Part shown: in pieces, positions 19,223 through 57,229 of the stretch | Numbering within the stretch: position 1 is the stretch's first letter | Layout: the number at the start of each line of letters is the position of its first letter | NCBI GenBank assembly: GCA_026770705.1 | Contig: JANJGN010000013.1 | Location: 138,880,001-138,944,000 of the forward strand | Direction of reading: 5' to 3' | DNA from: Isurus oxyrinchus | Taxonomy: Eukaryota | Length of the DNA stretch: 64,000 nt | Position numbers and translations under genes: made by a program | The notes under the pieces: generated by a model | Told to the model about the DNA's origin: nothing | Database searches by the model: none | The model's input: the letters and a program-made list of their open reading frames with translations, nothing else

Positions 19223-20001
19223 TTTGTTATGCATTTGTTATGGCTGGGTGAGGAGGAGTCAGCTGACTTCCCTTCTATTCAGCCCCCTCGGTTGTCAGGA
19301 CAAAGGTTTTAGAATTTCTTTTCCCCTTAAATGCCTCTCCCAATCAAAATGCATTTATTTGTTAATAAGGAGCCAATCAAACCAAGTTTCCTTGAGTCAA
19401 AGAAAGAGTAAGTTTATTAGTTACTAAACTTGAGAAAAATAATAAAGACATGACGGCACACACACAGGTATCAGAAGTAAGAAAGTTAGAGCCCAATAAA
19501 AAGTTAAAAGAAAATATGATTAAGTTGTTTGCTTGTCTTTGAGGTGCAGATGGTTGAATATTGTGACCATTTGAAGTTATTTGGCTTCCTGTAGAATTCT
19601 AAAGCTGACTTGGTTGAGGTTTGCACTTTGTTGAGGTCTCTCTTATAGCTTCAGAGAGACAGAGGGAGAGAGAGAGATCTTTAGTGCTCTCTTCCAGCAG
19701 TGTTTTTGGTGACTGTGATGTTTCTTCCAGTTTTTAAAGCTCCTATCTGTATATTCCCAAAAATGAATTTGATTAGCATGTCTTGCAGTCGTTGTTGCAG
19801 ACCAGGTAATCCCATTTTTTGATCTTTTCATCCCTGAACATTTTGACACATTTCAAGATAGAGATCAACAGGAGATGGGGATTATTTTGTCCTCCAAAGG
19901 GGATTTGAATATCCAATGAGTATCTGGCTGGTTAGCACTTCCCATTATCTTAATAGAACGACAGCTGATCAAAGTCCAGCACTTTGTATTTTTAATGCCT
20001 C

Positions 20002-23000
20002 TACCACAGAATTGATTTCCCAGGCAACTTTTCTTGGGGGAAGAATTGAACTTTATTTATGAGACACCAGCAGCAGCTACACTGCATCTAATTCTCTAAA
20101 CAAAGAACTCACTCCTAGAGGTTCCCTGCACTGCTAACTCATTGGTTTACACAGATCATGTGATCTTGTAACACAGGATTATTCTTAAGCCACAGTCCTA
20201 TGTTTATCAGAACTATAATTACTACATTCCTCCCCCTTTAACTTTTCTGTACGTGTCGTATTTACAAGGATATTTATCTCATGACTCTACAATATTTACA
20301 CAGGGCCATGAAATTACAAGTTCAGTCTTTCAGGTGGTTTCCTGATCTGTGTGGAACGTCGTAGCTCCACAGTTTCCGATTCTTTGTCAGGAACCACGTT
20401 CTCTTGAACCATATTAGTATCAGGTACCTCATTAGGTACCACATTAGGCACAAGCAGTTCGGTGTCTTCCACTCCGACAGAGACATCAGGCATGCCAGTC
20501 CTTGGTTGATCAGCTTCAATAGGAACCACAAGTCCAGCCATGGCTACAGGTGGAACATCATTTTGTTGGGGTATCTCCCTCCTTCTTAAATGATCCACGT
20601 GCTCACGGGTGATCCGGCCCTCTCCCCTTCCACTGTGCTTACTTTACCAGGTAACCATTTCCGTCCTCCACTGAAAATCCTTACGTACACTGCATCTCCA
20701 ACAGTAAATTGTCGCTCACGACAATGCAAATCATGAGTTGCTTTTTGGCTCCCTTGACCTTTCTCGACCTTCCCCTCCAAATTGGGAAGTATCAGGCTCA
20801 GTCTTGTTTGAATACGGCATCTCATCAGTAATTCTGCAGATGTTGCAGCTGTTGTAGTGTGGGGGGGGGGTTGTTCTGCAGTGAACTATGAAACGAGCAA
20901 GTTTAATTTCCAACGATTCAGCTGTTAACTTTATCACTCCCACCTTTTATTGTCTTTTCAAAACATTCTTCCTTTCCGTCTTCTTTCTACCACAGAGTTT
21001 AATCTTGGCCTTCTTTTTGACTTCAGTGTTGGCCAGACTTCTCTCAGGTGAAATCTCAACATGTCTTAGTTCCGCAGTTGAGCTACGCATGATTTCATTA
21101 TCTGCTCGCATCTTGGAAAGTTCTACAACTTCTGTTTTCAAAGCCTCTGTAGCTTCGTTCAGCTGATTTTTCAGCTCTTCTGTCTCCTTCTTGTATCTGT
21201 TGGCTTCCTCCCGGAACCTTAAATATTGCTGCGTCTTCTCTGCCAACTGGTTCTTCAGTTTGTTCGTGGTGTCGTAAAATTCTTCCTGTTTCTCTTGTAA
21301 TTTTCCAGAGGTACAAACATTGACCTGAGGGATCCTTGCTGTGTGTGAAGGTCTTTCAACAGGTTTTCCTTTTCTTTGAGAAACTCCCTTGCTTCATCTT
21401 GAATTCTGTCATTTAGCAGAGTCTCCCTGAGTTTATTCTGCTGTTCTTCCATGCTGCTGTTTAAGGCAGTCTTCAATTCTTCAGGTTGCTGAATGGTTAC
21501 ACACTCCTCTTTCATCCTGTTGCGGCCCTTGGACTCTCCAGGCTCTTTCTGAATTACCTTGCCTTGTTCCTTTTCCAACTCAGGAACTCTTCCAGCTTCC
21601 TTTTGAAATCTCACTGGCCAATCAAGGTTAATTTCCCTCAACCAATTTCAACCTAGAAGTCTTGACCTTCTGCCTTATAGTAGCATCACTGGTAGATGTG
21701 TTGTTTGGCGTCTATAATAAATAGGTACTCTGGCAATGCTTTTTACCTGGATTTCTTCGCCTGTGTACGTTTTCAGCTTGGCAGAAGTTTGTTCCAAATT
21801 TAATTGTTGATCACTTTTATTTAAATATCTGAAAGTGTGTTCCCCTATTACAGGGACAGAAGCACTAGTGTCCACTTCCATTTTTAAGGGTTTACCAATC
21901 ACTTGCAATGTGACAGTATTTGGCTCTGTCTTCCCAACTTTCATATTGACTAAGGAATAAATGTCAGAATTGGTTGTTTCTGGCTCCTCCACACTATACA
22001 CTTCATTGGAATTTGTTTGTTGCTGGAAGCCTGTTTTAATCTCGCTTTGCAAAGTTTCAGTATGTTCCCACTTTTGTGACAAAAATAACACTCCACCTTT
22101 TTAAACTGCCAGTCATTAGGAGTGTGTTTGCTTCCACATTGATAAAAATTTGTTTTTGAATTTGTTGCTAAGCTGTTTCCCACTTCACAGCGGAGTCCCG
22201 GTTTTACACGCACTTTCGGCTGACCATTCCCACCCAACCAGGAAAACGGCGCCATTGAGCACACATTGAATTGCTTGTGAATATCATCCTCTCGCATGCA
22301 CAGACCAAATGTTCCCTGAGCATATCATTCAGGGTTTCACCGAAATCATATTATTCCATTAGTTGCTTTAATTTCACCACGTAGATAGCAATGGTCTTTT
22401 CTGTGCCTCCATTCCGTGAATTGAACCTGAACCTCTGCATTGTGATGGAGGGCTTGGGTTGGAAATGTCGCTTAATGACATCTACTAATTCACTGAAGGT
22501 TTTCGAATTGGGGCACTGGGGGCCGTCAAGCTTTGAATTAAACTGTAGGTCTTGCTCCCACAAATACTCAGGGGAATTGCTCTCCTCTTTTCCTCCCCCG
22601 TGATTTCATTGGTTTGAAAGTAGAATGCAAGACATTCTGTATATTGAGACCAGTCATCTGCGGCTGGCTCAAAGAAATCGATTCTGCGGCATCTCGGATG
22701 AGTATATCTTCCTTTCTATTTGACTGTCTTAGATACTCACAATTGCTGGGCAAGGGACAGCACCAGATCTGATTTGTCCATTCATGTCTACAGTTTGTTA
22801 TAGAGTTGATTTTACAGGCAACTATTCTTGGTGGAAATATTGAACTTTATTTACAAGACAGCAGCAGCAGCTACATGTGTGCATCTAACCCTTTAACAAA
22901 AGAAAATCTCTCTCCTAGAGGTTCCCTGTGTTGCTAACTGATTAGTTTACACAAATCATGTGATGTTACAACACAGGATTATTCTTAAAGGTACAGTCCT

Positions 23001-23027
23001 ACGTTTATCAGAACTATAATTAGTACT
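20002..23027 (-). mobile_element. Non-autonomous Gypsy element C (LTR-gag-PR-[coiled coil]-IN C-terminus-LTR)
   Basis: LTRs 22796-23027 and 20002-20226, TSD GCCTC, PPT AAAGGGGGAGGAA. Gag HFQPKPSITMQRFRFNSR, knuckle CYFCHKSGNILKLC, protease MEVDTSAS, integrase tail LARF..CRTTP and LRRSTQIRKPPERL. Confidence 0.9.
20947..21620 (-). pseudogene. Coiled-coil insert resembling UACA/RAI14/ANKRD24-family host sequence, inside element C
   Basis: ORFs 21255-21641 and 20947-21246 are joined by one frameshift: SMEEQQNKLRETLL..QDE..KDLHTQQGSLRSMFVPLENY/EKQEEFYDTTNKLKNQLAEKTQQY..EEANRYKKETEELK. Similarity to UACA is from memory, not from a search. Confidence 0.6.
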
Positions 23028-25062
23028 GCCTCTCTTTCGAGAGGGTCCCTGCTTGAAGTGAGCCTTGACATACCCCAGGTGTGTAATTCCATGCAACAGA
23101 CCTGCAGTGTAATCCATACAGAAACTTTCTAGAGATGTGGTCAATTTACAGCATCAGACATCAGGTGACTCATGGCAGCCATTTTTGGCCAGTGCCTTTT
23201 CTTGTTTTTTTTTTAAAAACAGGTCTTCATTAAACAATTCAATATGCGTGTGGATAGCTGGTGAAGTTGTAGATAGACCTCCCTCGGTTATGATTTTCCA
23301 TCAAAGTGACACATTTACTTTCAAAATCTCTGCCTGTAATGCAATCCAACATTGAGTGAGAAACATTAGCTTTAGTGTTTGGAATCATGCATTTTCATAC
23401 CTGTCTATTTGGCAAAGGATTTTTAGTAAACACTGACCACAAGCCACCAGAGATGATTTGGCAAAAACCATTGGCCAGAGCATCACCAAGATTGTACATG
23501 TCTTGATAAAGATTCAAGGTTACGTCTGTGAGATCAGGTCCAGGCCAGGTAACTTGATGGTCACATTGGATACACTCCACAGAATGACTAGCCCAACTAA
23601 AACAGAAGATGCATCCTTAGATTTACAAGTTTACTTCATTGACACTGAGCTTGGAGATGTTCTCCAAATTGATCTGATACATTTTGCTTAACACAAATGC
23701 CAGAAACTACAAGAAGAAACAACAAAAGATTCTTCACTATGGAAACTGTGGAAAACCATCATCTAAGGATGACCTGATTCAATCCAGCATGTCCACAAAC
23801 ACGTGAGACCATTTTGACCTTGCTACAATGAGCTAGACATCCCCCAGGGTATCATTTTTACAGGTAGGCAGGTCATTATACCGGAATATTTGGAACCTGA
23901 TACTGTTCGCCAACTTCATCACTCACACATGGGCATAGATTGTACAAGAAGACTAGCGAGCGAGGTAGTCTATTGGCCAAATGTGAACAATGACATTGAA
24001 GTCATCCTCAACAAGTGCGAGGTATGCCAAGAACATATGACAAATCAGCACAAAGCACCATTGATTCCATATGAAGTTCCTAGCAATCCTTGGTGCAAAA
24101 TCACATCTGACCTCTTTCATGATTATGGTACTGACTTCACTGTGATCATCAGCTACTTTACCAAGTACCCTATTATTTGACAATTGCACAGTCAAGCACA
24201 ACTGTCATGCACACTCCAAGTGCTATTTTCAGTTTATTTCAGAGAGGTAAGATAGACAGATAACAATCCGCAATTTATTGGTAAGCCATTTCAGGACATG
24301 TGTGAGAAGTGGATTATCAATCACATTACCTCTTCTCCTCATTACCCTAGATCTAACGGCCTAGCTGAACGAATGATTTGCACAGGGAAATCCCTACTTC
24401 TCAAATGTAGACAAACCAAGCAGGACATACACATTGCAATGTTACATCTGAGACTGGCACCTTTAAGTGCAACTATTCCATCACTGGCAGAGCTCATATT
24501 TGTCAGACCAGTACATCCCAATTTACTCACTCTTAACCATTCTACTCTCTCAGAAATTAGACAGCAACTTTTAAAACTGCAAGAGAAGATGACAATGGGC
24601 ATGATAAAGATGCAGGTACAGAATTGTTAGGTTTACAGGTGGGACATGTTCACATCCAGGATCCCACAGTAGGTACATGGCAACCAGCCGAGGTACAAGG
24701 ATCTGTTCGGAACCACGGTCCTGTGAAGTCATTACACACAAAGATGCAATAATGAGGCGTAACTGAGGACAAATCAGATCCATTCCAGCTCCTCAACCAC
24801 CATGCAGTCCTATTGCATTAAGGACTAGATCCCAAATGCAACCAGAGAAACATCTAAGAATGACAACTCCACAGATCACTCTAAGCAATTAAAGAAGCCA
24901 ACAGACAAGGTCACCACTACAAGATCTGGGCATCCAGGCAGATTACCTCTATACTTTAGAGACTCATAGATTCACCAGTCCTACACATTTATGTAATGGT
25001 ATCTAAACATGAACATTTACTTCTTTGGAAGAGGAGAAAGCATCTTTAAAAAGGAAGGGGGA

Positions 25063-53101: not shown

Positions 53102-56100
53102 TACACACTATCTCCAAGTGTTTGAAAGCAGTAATAAACTGATAGTTTCCATCTCCACTGTAGAGTATTGTTTCTGATGCATGTTTTGCTTTTGGAGAAG
53201 TACCCGATTGGTCTGTATATCTCTGATTTTTCTTCCTGGAGGAGGACAGCCCCTGTCCTGATGTCACTCGCATCAATGGTTTACTTTAAATGCTTTGTTA
53301 AAGTCCGGAGCTGCAAGCACAGGCTCGCCTGTTAAAATGGCTTCCAGCTTTTTGAAAGCTGTCTGACATTTCTCCAGTCCGTACTACCTTGCTTTTTTCT
53401 GTAGTAGGTCTGTCAGCGGGGCAATAGAACTTGCGGTAGAACCCATACATCCCCAAGAACCTCATGATTTCCCATTTTGTGGTGGGAATGGGGAACTGAG
53501 CTACTACTTATACCTTTGTGGCTCTGGGCAGTACTTTTCCTTGACCCACTATGTGTCCTAGGTGAGTCGCCTGAGCCTTAGTGAGCTCACTGTTTGCAAT
53601 CTTGATCACTAGGCCAGCTGACTGTACTTTCTGGCAAGGGGGCTTCCACTTGCTCTAAGTGAGTTTCCAAGGTGTCGCTGTACACTAGGTGGACATCTAG
53701 GTGCTATGCAATCGGAAAAGCCCACCACTACCTGGTTCATCAGCCTCTGAGAGGTGGCTGGGGCATTTCGGAGTCCAAATGGCATGACTTGACACTGGCA
53801 TAAACCATTCGGAGTCACGAAGGTGGAGATTTCCTTCATGTGGGCTGTCAAGGGAACCTGCTAATATCCCTTGAGTAAATCTATCTTCATAATGTAGGCT
53901 GCTTTATTTACCCTATCTATGCAGTCTTCCAGGCAGGGTATAGGGTAGGAGTCGGCTCTGGTCACTGCATGAGCTTTGCGGTTGTCAATGCAGAACCTTG
54001 TGGAGCCGTTCGGCTTGGGCACGAGCACAACTCGGGATCTCCAGCTGCTGCAGCAAGTAGTCAATCTCCTCCCAGACCAGGGCCAGCTTTTCTGGGCTGA
54101 GACGATAGGGATGTTGTCTTATGGAAGGGGCCTTTCCCATTTCCACATCACGTAGAGCCAGTGTGGCGCAGCCTGGCTTGTCTCTGCACGAGCTCTTAAA
54201 TGCAGTGAGCAGCCGCGTCCAGACTGCTCGCTGTTCTCCACTTTGGGTGTGAATAAGGAGTCTAAGTTCGCTAGTACCTCTGTGCTGGTTAGAAGGGTAG
54301 TAGGCATTTCAATGTAAGCCTCACCCAGATCTCCCTCCTATTCATCCTCACTGCTATCCTTATTCTCCAGGTCAGTGACAATGGGACCTCATGATACGTT
54401 GATGCGGTTGATACGTTGAAGATTTCAGTTGGGTCACACCCAGGTTACCCATGACTTCCTGGAATACTTTGGACCGTCTCTTGGCTGCGATATTGCTTTA
54501 TCATGTTGGCATGACGCAGCCTTTGCTTTTGCCCACAATCTGGGGTCTCAATTAGATAGTTTACTGCCCGAGCTTCTTTGCTACTCTGTATGGACCACTT
54601 AACCGAGCTTGGTATTGGTAGGAGCACTAACACATGGGCCAGGATTTCACAGTGCCTCCTGCGCGGTGGGATATTACGGTCCCGCCAAACTGAATAGAAA
54701 TGTAAATGGGAGAAACACTGCGGCAGGGCCATGAAATCCTGGTCCTAGTCTCCTGGCTGAAAGGTCTGGGCCCTGGCATGTTTGTCTGCCCATTTTTTTA
54801 TAGCTGTCTGGGAGATTTTTAAGTGTTCTTGGGCCACATCACAGGCTCTCTATGAGTCACTCCCAGAACATTGTTACATCGTCAAACATGGTGATTTCCT
54901 CCTTCTGTTCTAAAAAACCCTCTCCTTGATTAGTTCCAGAGGCCCTCGCACTTGGTGCCCGTAAACTAATTCAAATGCAGTAAAGCCTGTGGACTCATTG
55001 GGTGGGTCCCTGGTAGCGAACAGCAGAAAACCTAGTCCTCTATCCCAGGCATGGGGGCACTCCTGGCAGTATGCCCTGTTCATTGATTTTAGGGTCTGGT
55101 GGGACCGTTCTTGTGCCCCCTCTGACTGCGGTTGATACGTTGAAGATTTCAGTTGGGTCACACCCAGGTTACCGATGACTTCCTGGAATACTTTGGACAT
55201 GACATTTGAGCCCTGATCCGTCTGGATCTCGGTGGGCAGACCATACCTGGTAAAGAATTGGGTTCATTCTCTCACCATTGTTTTGGCAGGTATTCTTCTT
55301 AGGTGAACAGTCTCTGGGAAGCGGGTAGCCACATCCATGATAGTAAGGAAAAACCGGCCACGCAGTCCACTAACTGAATGGTTCCCTGAAGGCTGACATG
55401 GGAACCGTAGGTGCAAGTTCTATTGCAGGTTGGGGTTTTCCCATAACCTGGCAGGCGTGGCAGGTTCTGTAAAACCTCACTACATCCCTGTGGAGGTGCG
55501 GCCAGTAAAAATGCTGGCTGATGCAGGCTTCAGTTTTGCATATACCAAGATGCCCAGCCATTAGAATTTCACAAGCTACCAGTAATAATTCCCTATGGCA
55601 CCACTGCCTGGTGGATCACTGTCCGCTTCTTGTTTGCAGGCCTGTGAGAGGGTCTCCATTTCCTCATTAGCGCCTCATCTTTAATGTAGTAGCATTCAGG
55701 GACTGCTTCTGCCCCAGCTTCATTGTGTGCAGAATGAACTAATGTTTTTAACAGTGGGCCAACTTGCGTGGCTGCTACCAAGGAAGATCTATTGATTAGC
55801 TCCTTAGGGCCTTCTAGATTCCTGGGAAAGGTTTCAGATAACCAAACCCTGGGGCCTTCTGTCAGCAGTGCCACTTCAGCCTCCACTTGCTTGGCCAAAG
55901 ACCATGTTACCACACACTCAGGGAAAATGCCAGGCACTTTCTCCTGTAGCTGTTCTGTCTCCCTGACCTCAGTGGGCTTCTCTAAGACCACTGGGGATGC
56001 TATTACCTTTGATCCTGCCTGGTTATTGCCAAGGAGCAGGTCAACCCCATCCACAGGCAAACTAGGGACAACTCCCATGGTCACTGGCCCTGGCACAAGG

Positions 56101-57229
56101 TCACACGCCAGATGCACCTGGTATAAAGGGATGGACACGTACCCTCCTTCAATCCCCTTTACCAACAACTTGGCACTTACTGCACTCTCTGGTGGAAAGA
56201 TCATGCCTTTTTCCAGCAGTAGAGTTTGGCTGGTCCTTGTATCCCTCTGTATCATGATCGGCTTACTCACCTCACCCTAGGGAAATGTGGCCACCACTCC
56301 ATCAGAGACAAAATCCTTGTAACCCTCGGGGATTTGTTTAATCTCACCCGCACTCTCAGGAGTGCATCTACAGGGATTCACAGCCGCAGTAAGAGTCATA
56401 GCCTAGCCTGCCACACTTTCTGAATGACTCCCATTCTCTGCACAGGGTGCATGTACCCCAAAAGGTCCCACTGGTTTTTCCAGTAACCTCCAGCAGTTGG
56501 CCTGGAGGTGCCCTACCTTTCGGCAGTTAAAGCACACAAGGCTTCTTGGCCTCACTTCTCATCTCAGCACCACCCTTTCTGTCCAGCATTTCCCTCTCTC
56601 CCATGGGTGCTCAGTTTCCTATCAATCTCCCCACCTCCATCCTTTCCAGTTGGTTAGGGTGACGAGGGGAGGGTCTCCTCTGGGACAAGAATCTGTGGAT
56701 CAATTCATAAACATCAGCCAGTGTGGCTGCCTGCGTGACCCCTGTTACCCTTTGTTCCTCCAGGTGTGTTCTTATTGTATGAAGCTTTTAAAACTCCTCA
56801 AGGAGAATTATTTCACAGAGGCTTTTGCGTGTGGCTTCTGTTTTAAGTGCCCGGACCCACTGGTCAAAAGCAAGTTGCTTAAGCCTTTCAAATTCCAGGT
56901 ACACCTGGTCAGGCCATTTCCTGAGGGTCTGGAATTTCTGACTGTATGCCTCTGGCACTAACTGGTACGCACTTAAAATAGGCTTTTTTGCTGCCTCATA
57001 GTCAGGCAAACACAAGAGTGAGGCAAGAGGGAGTAAACTTCCTGACCTTTTCCAGAAAGCTTACCCTGCAGTGGTAAGGACCAATGTTGACCTGGCCACA
57101 TTGACAGCTGAGCTAACCGCTCAAAAGAGATAAGGAAGCTTCCATCTCTGCTTCATCAAATTTAGGGATTAAATGAGCGAACCGGATTGCTTCAGCCCTT
57201 AAGTCTGAGCTAGTGGTGTCTTCAAGGGT

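Follow-up and report, generated by a model that had tools for sequence, protein, structure and literature searches.

A UACA-derived coiled-coil cassette in a decayed Gypsy element of Isurus oxyrinchus and its probable origin in an older chimeric LTR family

The 64,000-nucleotide stretch of Isurus oxyrinchus DNA analysed here (hereafter the window) carries on its minus strand, at 20002-23027, a Ty3/Gypsy element with two LTRs, a 5-bp target site duplication (TSD), gag, protease and an integrase tail, in which coiled-coil coding sequence stands in the place of the pol core. The locus raises the question of where this sequence came from, by which route it reached a position behind gag and protease, and whether it mattered to the elements that carried it.

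The window element and the identity of its insert

The first-pass annotation described a two-LTR element with TSD, gag, protease and integrase C-terminus that lacks reverse transcriptase (RT), RNase H and the integrase core, and this description stands, since both LTRs, the GCCTC duplication and readable gag, protease and integrase-tail sequences were recovered (Table 1) and no RT, RNase H or integrase core was found between the protease and the integrase tail. No env was detected in the window element or in the parent copies described below, nor do they have space for one, and no tRNA gene was found within the 64-kb window. The two LTRs share 188 identities against 30 mismatches and a polypurine tract precedes the 3' LTR. 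The TG..CA termini, decayed in the window copy, are intact in sister copies, as is the primer-binding site, which we take to be of the tRNA-Ser type. Sister copies also supplied the domain matches, with the protease recognized in L005 (PF13975, E 2.6e-6) and a weak match of gag to PF03732 (E 0.004). The window copy itself is broken, its gag by stops, frameshifts and a deletion of about 80 bp at 22278-22282, and its first UACA piece by a frameshift near 21294. At the family level a single frame is seen, with zinc-knuckle motifs that are decayed in the window copy; as far as the description in PMC5408684 extends, a single gag-pol frame and two zinc knuckles characterize the Mag lineage of Ty3/Gypsy. 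The linker between protease and RT (21516-21617) is colinear with that of the parent, far more diverged than the adjoining protease and richer in E, K and Q. Elsewhere the window resembles ordinary repeat-rich DNA, and the minus-strand frames 39243-39884 and 55596-56276 resemble retroelement proteins, one of them the reverse transcriptase of a LINE.

Table 1. Features of the element, listed in the order of its minus strand (positions refer to the window).
Feature	Position	Strand	Basis
TSD GCCTC, 5' side of element	23028..23032	.	sequence
5' LTR	22796..23027	-	LTR comparison, sister copies
Primer-binding site region, decayed in window copy	22777..22795	-	sister copies
gag, zinc-knuckle-like motifs; family-level start codon at 22692	21930..22692	-	sequence, sister copies
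Aspartyl protease, bounds approximate; stops near its end in window copy	21618..21929	-	PF13975 in sister copy L005
Diverged PR-RT linker of parent element	21516..21617	-	parent comparison
UACA piece 1, host exon nt 1498-1850, 76% nt identity	21167..21515	-	host exon alignment
UACA piece 2, host exon nt 2292-2399, 75% nt identity	21068..21175	-	host exon alignment
Tail from donor family A (piece X)	20950..21067	-	comparison of families A and B
Family-wide stop codon closing the ~625-codon Gag-PR-UACA frame	20947..20949	-	family-B copies
Integrase C-terminal remnant, colinear with full-pol parent	20311..20946	-	parent comparison
Polypurine tract	20227..20239	-	sister copies, sequence
3' LTR	20002..20226	-	LTR comparison, sister copies
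TSD GCCTC, 3' side of element	19997..20001	.	sequence

The suggestion that the insert derives from UACA was confirmed. When the open-frame sister copy L003 was compared with 2,467 candidate proteins of 393-2000 aa, all eight matches were UACA, with sharks ranked first (best E 2.4e-32, 57% identity), and the window pieces align with the host's own exon (Table 1). One supporting UACA search returned 10 matches, including one unrelated plant protein and three unnamed proteins. A generic coiled-coil bias was rejected as the identity of the insert, since Pfam gave only sub-threshold coiled-coil matches but the sequence searches were specific to UACA. The host gene lies on G000:C25, where the relevant part is a single AG..GT-bounded exon of 2.72 kb with an open frame, and its protein is 98.8% identical to white shark UACA, as fits a lamnid-type shark. 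A copy of the same element family (L017, G000:C25:4963783-4967443) is located about 80 kb downstream of this exon.

The extent of the captured sequence had to be revised. The insert had been placed at 20947-21620, and UACA is indeed present there, but it starts only at 21515: homology to the parent continues until about 21516 and resumes from 20946, so that 21617-21516 is parental linker, and 21067-20947 is non-UACA sequence inherited from another LTR family. Likewise, the idea of a captured host exon holds for the sequence but not for its limits, as the two pieces are internal to one exon whose borders are not reached, and are joined in frame at GCTGAAGAA, with a 9-nt microhomology, after 450 nt of the host exon were skipped.

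Two families sharing one cassette

The window element belongs to a family, here called B, in which the two UACA pieces with identical junctions were found in all 30 loci fetched. A 33-nt motif spanning the UACA-UACA join was matched at 1,730 genomic places with at most three mismatches (control, 0); the motif fits 27 of the 31 family-B copies collected and none of the 51 family-A copies collected, which makes 1,730 a lower bound for family B. The expected in-frame fusion of Gag, protease and UACA was borne out at the family level as one frame of about 625 codons in B copies, in which a frameshift shared by the aligned copies over the last ~20 codons gives a K/R-rich end. Besides, a parent family with full pol was found that has the same LTR as B and copies of about 4.6-4.9 kb, in which RT (PF00078, E 2e-21) followed by an integrase core (PF00665, E 1.8e-6, under the curated cut-off) occupies the place of the window element's insert; RNase H gave no Pfam match in the single parent ORF scanned. 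Family B is a non-autonomous Gypsy family, probably spread in trans by this parent. The proposal of amplification in trans is supported by the copy number and the shared LTR, the complementation itself being our interpretation. No intact copy was found among the family copies collected.

No run on record as RNA was listed for the family; contigs assembled from presumed RNA runs do cover it, but convey neither strand nor level. The sole deeply covered contig that was traced corresponds to another locus than the window copy, L150 (G000:C16:33677316-33680345), a B copy in antisense orientation within a host transcript that is spliced and polyadenylated, probably in its 3' UTR; a 693-nt GT-AG intron of this transcript is joined in four of four runs from two organisms.

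Searching with the parts of UACA that are absent from B returned many more broken copies and revealed family A, which has a different LTR and a different gag. Its cassette stands behind a truncated gag and comprises UACA, about 90 nt of a piece X, about 270 nt of a ninein exon, and TPR, with the UACA, ninein and TPR pieces all in sense orientation and mostly in one frame. The UACA part begins at exon nt 853, ends at 2403 and shows a series of internal deletions. For the ninein piece, 12 of 12 matches were ninein (best E 1.4e-10) and nucleotide identity to the host exon on C19 is 75-84%; TPR was recognized by PF25481 (E 1e-9), and the ninein-TPR piece gave 0 matches in the PDB. The TPR part consists of consecutive AG..GT-bounded host exons on C16 joined without introns, and single alignments span six exon-exon borders in 34, 9, 30, 25, 21, and 21 copies, which indicates that TPR was taken from spliced mRNA; the UACA and ninein pieces each lie within single exons, and the evidence of intron loss comes from the TPR part. 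The joined segments overlap by 7-8 nt at the ninein-TPR join, compared with 9 nt at the UACA-UACA join; microhomology was established for neither of B's two outer junctions. First-look searches with family-A pieces returned 2,202, 1,217 and 1,939 candidates, which are not copy numbers, and a full-pol parent of family A was not found among the 12 loci inspected.

Several further arrangements were observed among these copies. A permuted family-A subtype (L040, L053, L054, L090, L095, L096, L099, L102, L104) carries UACA 2325-2403 and X before UACA 890/919-2266, which suggests that a tandem duplication took place early or that the template was switched a second time. L111 and L112 (G000:C2:94.99-95.00 Mb) are one family-A copy present twice, inverted, 6 kb apart and with identical scores, representing either a recent inverted duplication or an assembly artefact. 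L148 (G000:C20:6986369-6989695), whose gag is related to that of family A and is accompanied by a protease, and L149 (C3:199723129-199726449) form a small separate Gypsy gag-protease group with a different ninein piece (about 320 nt, 76% nt identity, from the upstream part of the same exon, with three matches besides the host) that looks like an independent ninein capture. Before UACA, family A also has a piece Y of about 156 nt (L118:1886-2041), coiled-coil-like as is X, and the two pieces are possibly further captured genes. Their explanation as UACA or ninein mosaics was unsupported (z at most 2.3), an Atlas search for the host source of either gave generic leads only, and no long host frame for Y was found among the 150 of 861 candidates scored in its own genome.

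Families A and B have in common the 450-nt deletion, the 3' end of UACA and the start of the non-UACA piece X. In a DNA tree of 81 of the 82 copies together with the host exon (one copy was dropped for low cover; support as SH-aLRT), B is monophyletic (100) and sister to an A subfamily with a 102-nt deletion, del-102 (92.8), and both are nested in an older star-like radiation of A. Mean terminal branches are 0.063 in B, 0.101 in the del-102 subfamily and 0.126 in the other A copies. The shared deletion, the shared tail and the nesting within A all point to a second-hand cassette in B, and these comparisons of sequence indicate that B most likely took UACA from family A and not from host mRNA. 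The earlier claim of transduction of a host gene by an LTR element thus holds for the capture, but B most likely received UACA from the older chimeric family. The transfer from A to B would most simply be read as template switching from one element RNA to another packaged in the same particle.

Related cassettes occur in other sharks. Among basking shark gene models, P0009 shares the deletion and the tail of B and P0010 is A-type, and the cloudy catshark gene model P0017 contains UACA, X and ninein in succession. In a protein tree, eight old A copies form one clade (UFBoot 98) that groups with Lamniformes and Carcharhiniformes (90), and A copies and both orders lie together on one side of the split that sets off carpet and bullhead sharks. 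The captured UACA thus branches near the base of Lamniformes and Carcharhiniformes, which places the capture near their common ancestor. This ancestor, shared by mackerel and ground sharks, is of Jurassic age.

Selection on the fusion frame and competing explanations

The first-pass annotation had proposed ORF continuity and dN/dS as measures of constraint; the family frame proved open, but amino-acid constraint was not significant. From the ATG at 22692 to the stop at 20949, no majority stop was present in 18 colinear B copies apart from one CpG site (TGA in 11, CGA in 4, CAA in 3, and others in 2) that represents a decaying CpG codon. All 14 direct host-host junction classes seen in at least three copies are in frame, a count from which the X-spanning class is excluded, private indels confounding its figure of 12 of 25 in frame, as is one gapped class (1 of 3); classes seen in two copies, 11 in number, have mixed frames. 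Both clearly shared indels are of 3 nt, compared with 82 of 398 private indels, and the lineage to B accumulated 45 changed sites with 0 stops or frameshifts versus 3.1 expected (P 0.04). Between 52 and 95% of the microhomologies among such coiled-coil sequences are in frame regardless, so that the 14 of 14 has P about 0.007 if the chance rate is 0.7 and 0.23 if it is 0.9, and some of the A copies were retrieved with protein queries, which biases the sample toward open frames. Also speaking against frame selection are the frameshift that B copies share in the last ~20 codons and B's loss of ninein and TPR. The omega of the B stem is 0.52 (0.22-1.07) versus a private baseline of 0.53, that of the del-102 stem is 0.21 (0.08-0.75), and three internal stems jointly reach 0.78 of the terminal omega baseline (5-95% range 0.51-1.18); neither the B stem nor the three internal stems show significant constraint. 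Altogether, these sequence comparisons provide moderate evidence that frames remained open along active lineages, and we lean slightly towards selection that kept the rod behind Gag open while constraining it only loosely.

It is possible, if on balance rather unlikely, that the captures are real but the host pieces were of no consequence: purine-rich coiled-coil mRNAs would provide many microhomologies, most of them in frame, and such chimeras would accumulate by chance and be carried along. The high in-frame expectation just given, the agreement of the B stem with its baseline and the overlap of the stem ratios with 1 would all be accommodated by such neutral passengers, and in the data of Tan et al. 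(2016, PMC5131818) that bear on this point, 14 of 17 young fly retrocopies had an in-frame longest ORF, possibly owing to their youth. Against this stand the lack of any stop or frameshift common to copies inside the host pieces along long stems, the low omega of the del-102 stem, and the fact that all three identified donors and the separate ninein capture are sense coiled coils. The same uniformity of donors, long coiled coils fused behind gag in three of three cases, could instead reflect a specific function in which the rods steered or oligomerized Gag particles and gave them an edge in nuclear entry or in capturing helper enzymes. TPR belongs to the nuclear basket, ninein to the centrosome and UACA to the perinuclear region; the cassette was retained across two element backbones and two bursts, and the K/R-rich tail of family B resembles a nuclear signal as judged from its composition. 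We nevertheless consider such a function improbable, given that pieces were deleted repeatedly and in differing ways, that B amplified despite losing ninein and TPR entirely, and that residues show no significant constraint.

Two other explanations concern the locus itself. Direct capture of UACA by B from host mRNA or DNA, which was implicit in the first-pass annotation, fits with a cassette that continues in frame after B's own protease linker, but it is contradicted by the presence in B of A's exact deletion, 3' UACA end and non-UACA tail and by the nesting of B in A, and we regard it as very improbable. Domestication of the window copy as a host gene, which the family-like contigs might have suggested, has a negligible probability: the window locus has no intact ORF and is interrupted by the stops, frameshifts and deletion listed above, and the one strongly covered copy is another locus, antisense in a spliced host transcript.

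Overall, the window holds a decayed copy of the non-autonomous family B, whose UACA cassette was probably acquired by template switch onto a family-A RNA and which its parent probably spread in trans. In this history, family A took at least TPR as processed RNA, and UACA, ninein and TPR came to stand behind a truncated gag. Host pieces would have been added by successive microhomology-guided template switches in particles and then modified by in-frame deletions, and one further switch would have carried the cassette into a different Gypsy lineage, family B, a step to which the deletion, tail and tree position described above relate. B, with its 5-bp TSDs and a parent encoding RT and integrase, would have been complemented in trans. 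Active copies may have made a Gag(-PR)-coiled-coil fusion selected for an open frame with little residue constraint, a step that we favour by a narrow measure, and a stop-free rod behind Gag would benefit translation and the stability of the RNA as well as joint assembly with the Gag of the helper. A broader proposal, which we put forward tentatively and consider unlikely as a whole, is that shark Gypsy elements repeatedly collected coiled-coil rods as Gag extensions (UACA, TPR, two separate ninein pieces, and probably X and Y as well) because rods aided the assembly or nuclear arrival of defective elements, and that the cassette could move from one LTR family to another and, from the mackerel/ground shark ancestor onwards, drove two bursts that each gave thousands of copies.

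Comparison with known systems

The window element belongs neither to the autonomous Gypsy elements nor to the retroviruses or domesticated genes, and the mechanism is of a known kind, LTR-mediated retroposition. In acutely transforming retroviruses, host sequence takes the place of pol as an in-frame extension of Gag (gag-onc) and spread depends on a helper. The analogy with retroviral oncogene capture drawn earlier is apt for the mechanism of capture, but the shark element has no env and no infection, its donors are structural rods and no sign of a growth signal was seen, and the function of the fusion lies beyond the analogy.

What the shark families offer is serial capture of host genes by a non-viral LTR element of a vertebrate, amplified to thousands of copies, with nested deletions in a datable succession and an inter-family transfer. 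The thousands of copies, nested deletions and transfer make it testable at scale whether a defective retroelement benefits from the host sequence that it has captured or carries it as a passenger. Besides, the captures explain the spurious 'uncharacterized' shark gene models P0009, P0010, and P0017, and thousands of look-alikes of UACA, ninein and TPR may disturb annotation and read mapping in sharks. No description of the three coiled-coil captures, the inter-family transfer, the age or the scale was found in the open-access literature searched, and a repeat-library entry, e.g., in Repbase or Dfam, may exist.

The closest precedents differ in host, donor and scale. As related in the relevant part of PMC4299795, crocodilian endogenous retroviruses (ERVs) captured KIT-ligand and nectin3 mRNA anciently and amplified later, to 9 and 6 copies; these are retroviruses with one gene each, in separate ORFs under purifying selection, whereas the shark case involves Gypsy elements without env, a Gag fusion, thousands of copies and no significant amino-acid constraint. 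Maize Bs1, in the account given by a review (PMC13317346), combines parts of three host genes within a single LTR element, where they form a chimeric ORF; in contrast to this plant element, which carries enzyme fragments and is reported there as a transcribed and translated new gene, the shark copies are vertebrate fossils with structural coiled coils. For animals, the portion of Tan et al. (2016, PMC5131818) on which we draw describes LTR-mediated retroposition in which partial mRNAs replace internal ORFs, with short similarity at the switch points, multi-gene chimeras and further non-autonomous rounds. Like those retrocopies, the window element has its internal ORF replaced by partial host sequence, keeps both LTRs and underwent further rounds of retroposition; compared with the cases set out there, the shark families are ancient, number more than 1,700 copies, unite three coiled-coil donors in one frame, and include a cassette that moved between two LTR families.
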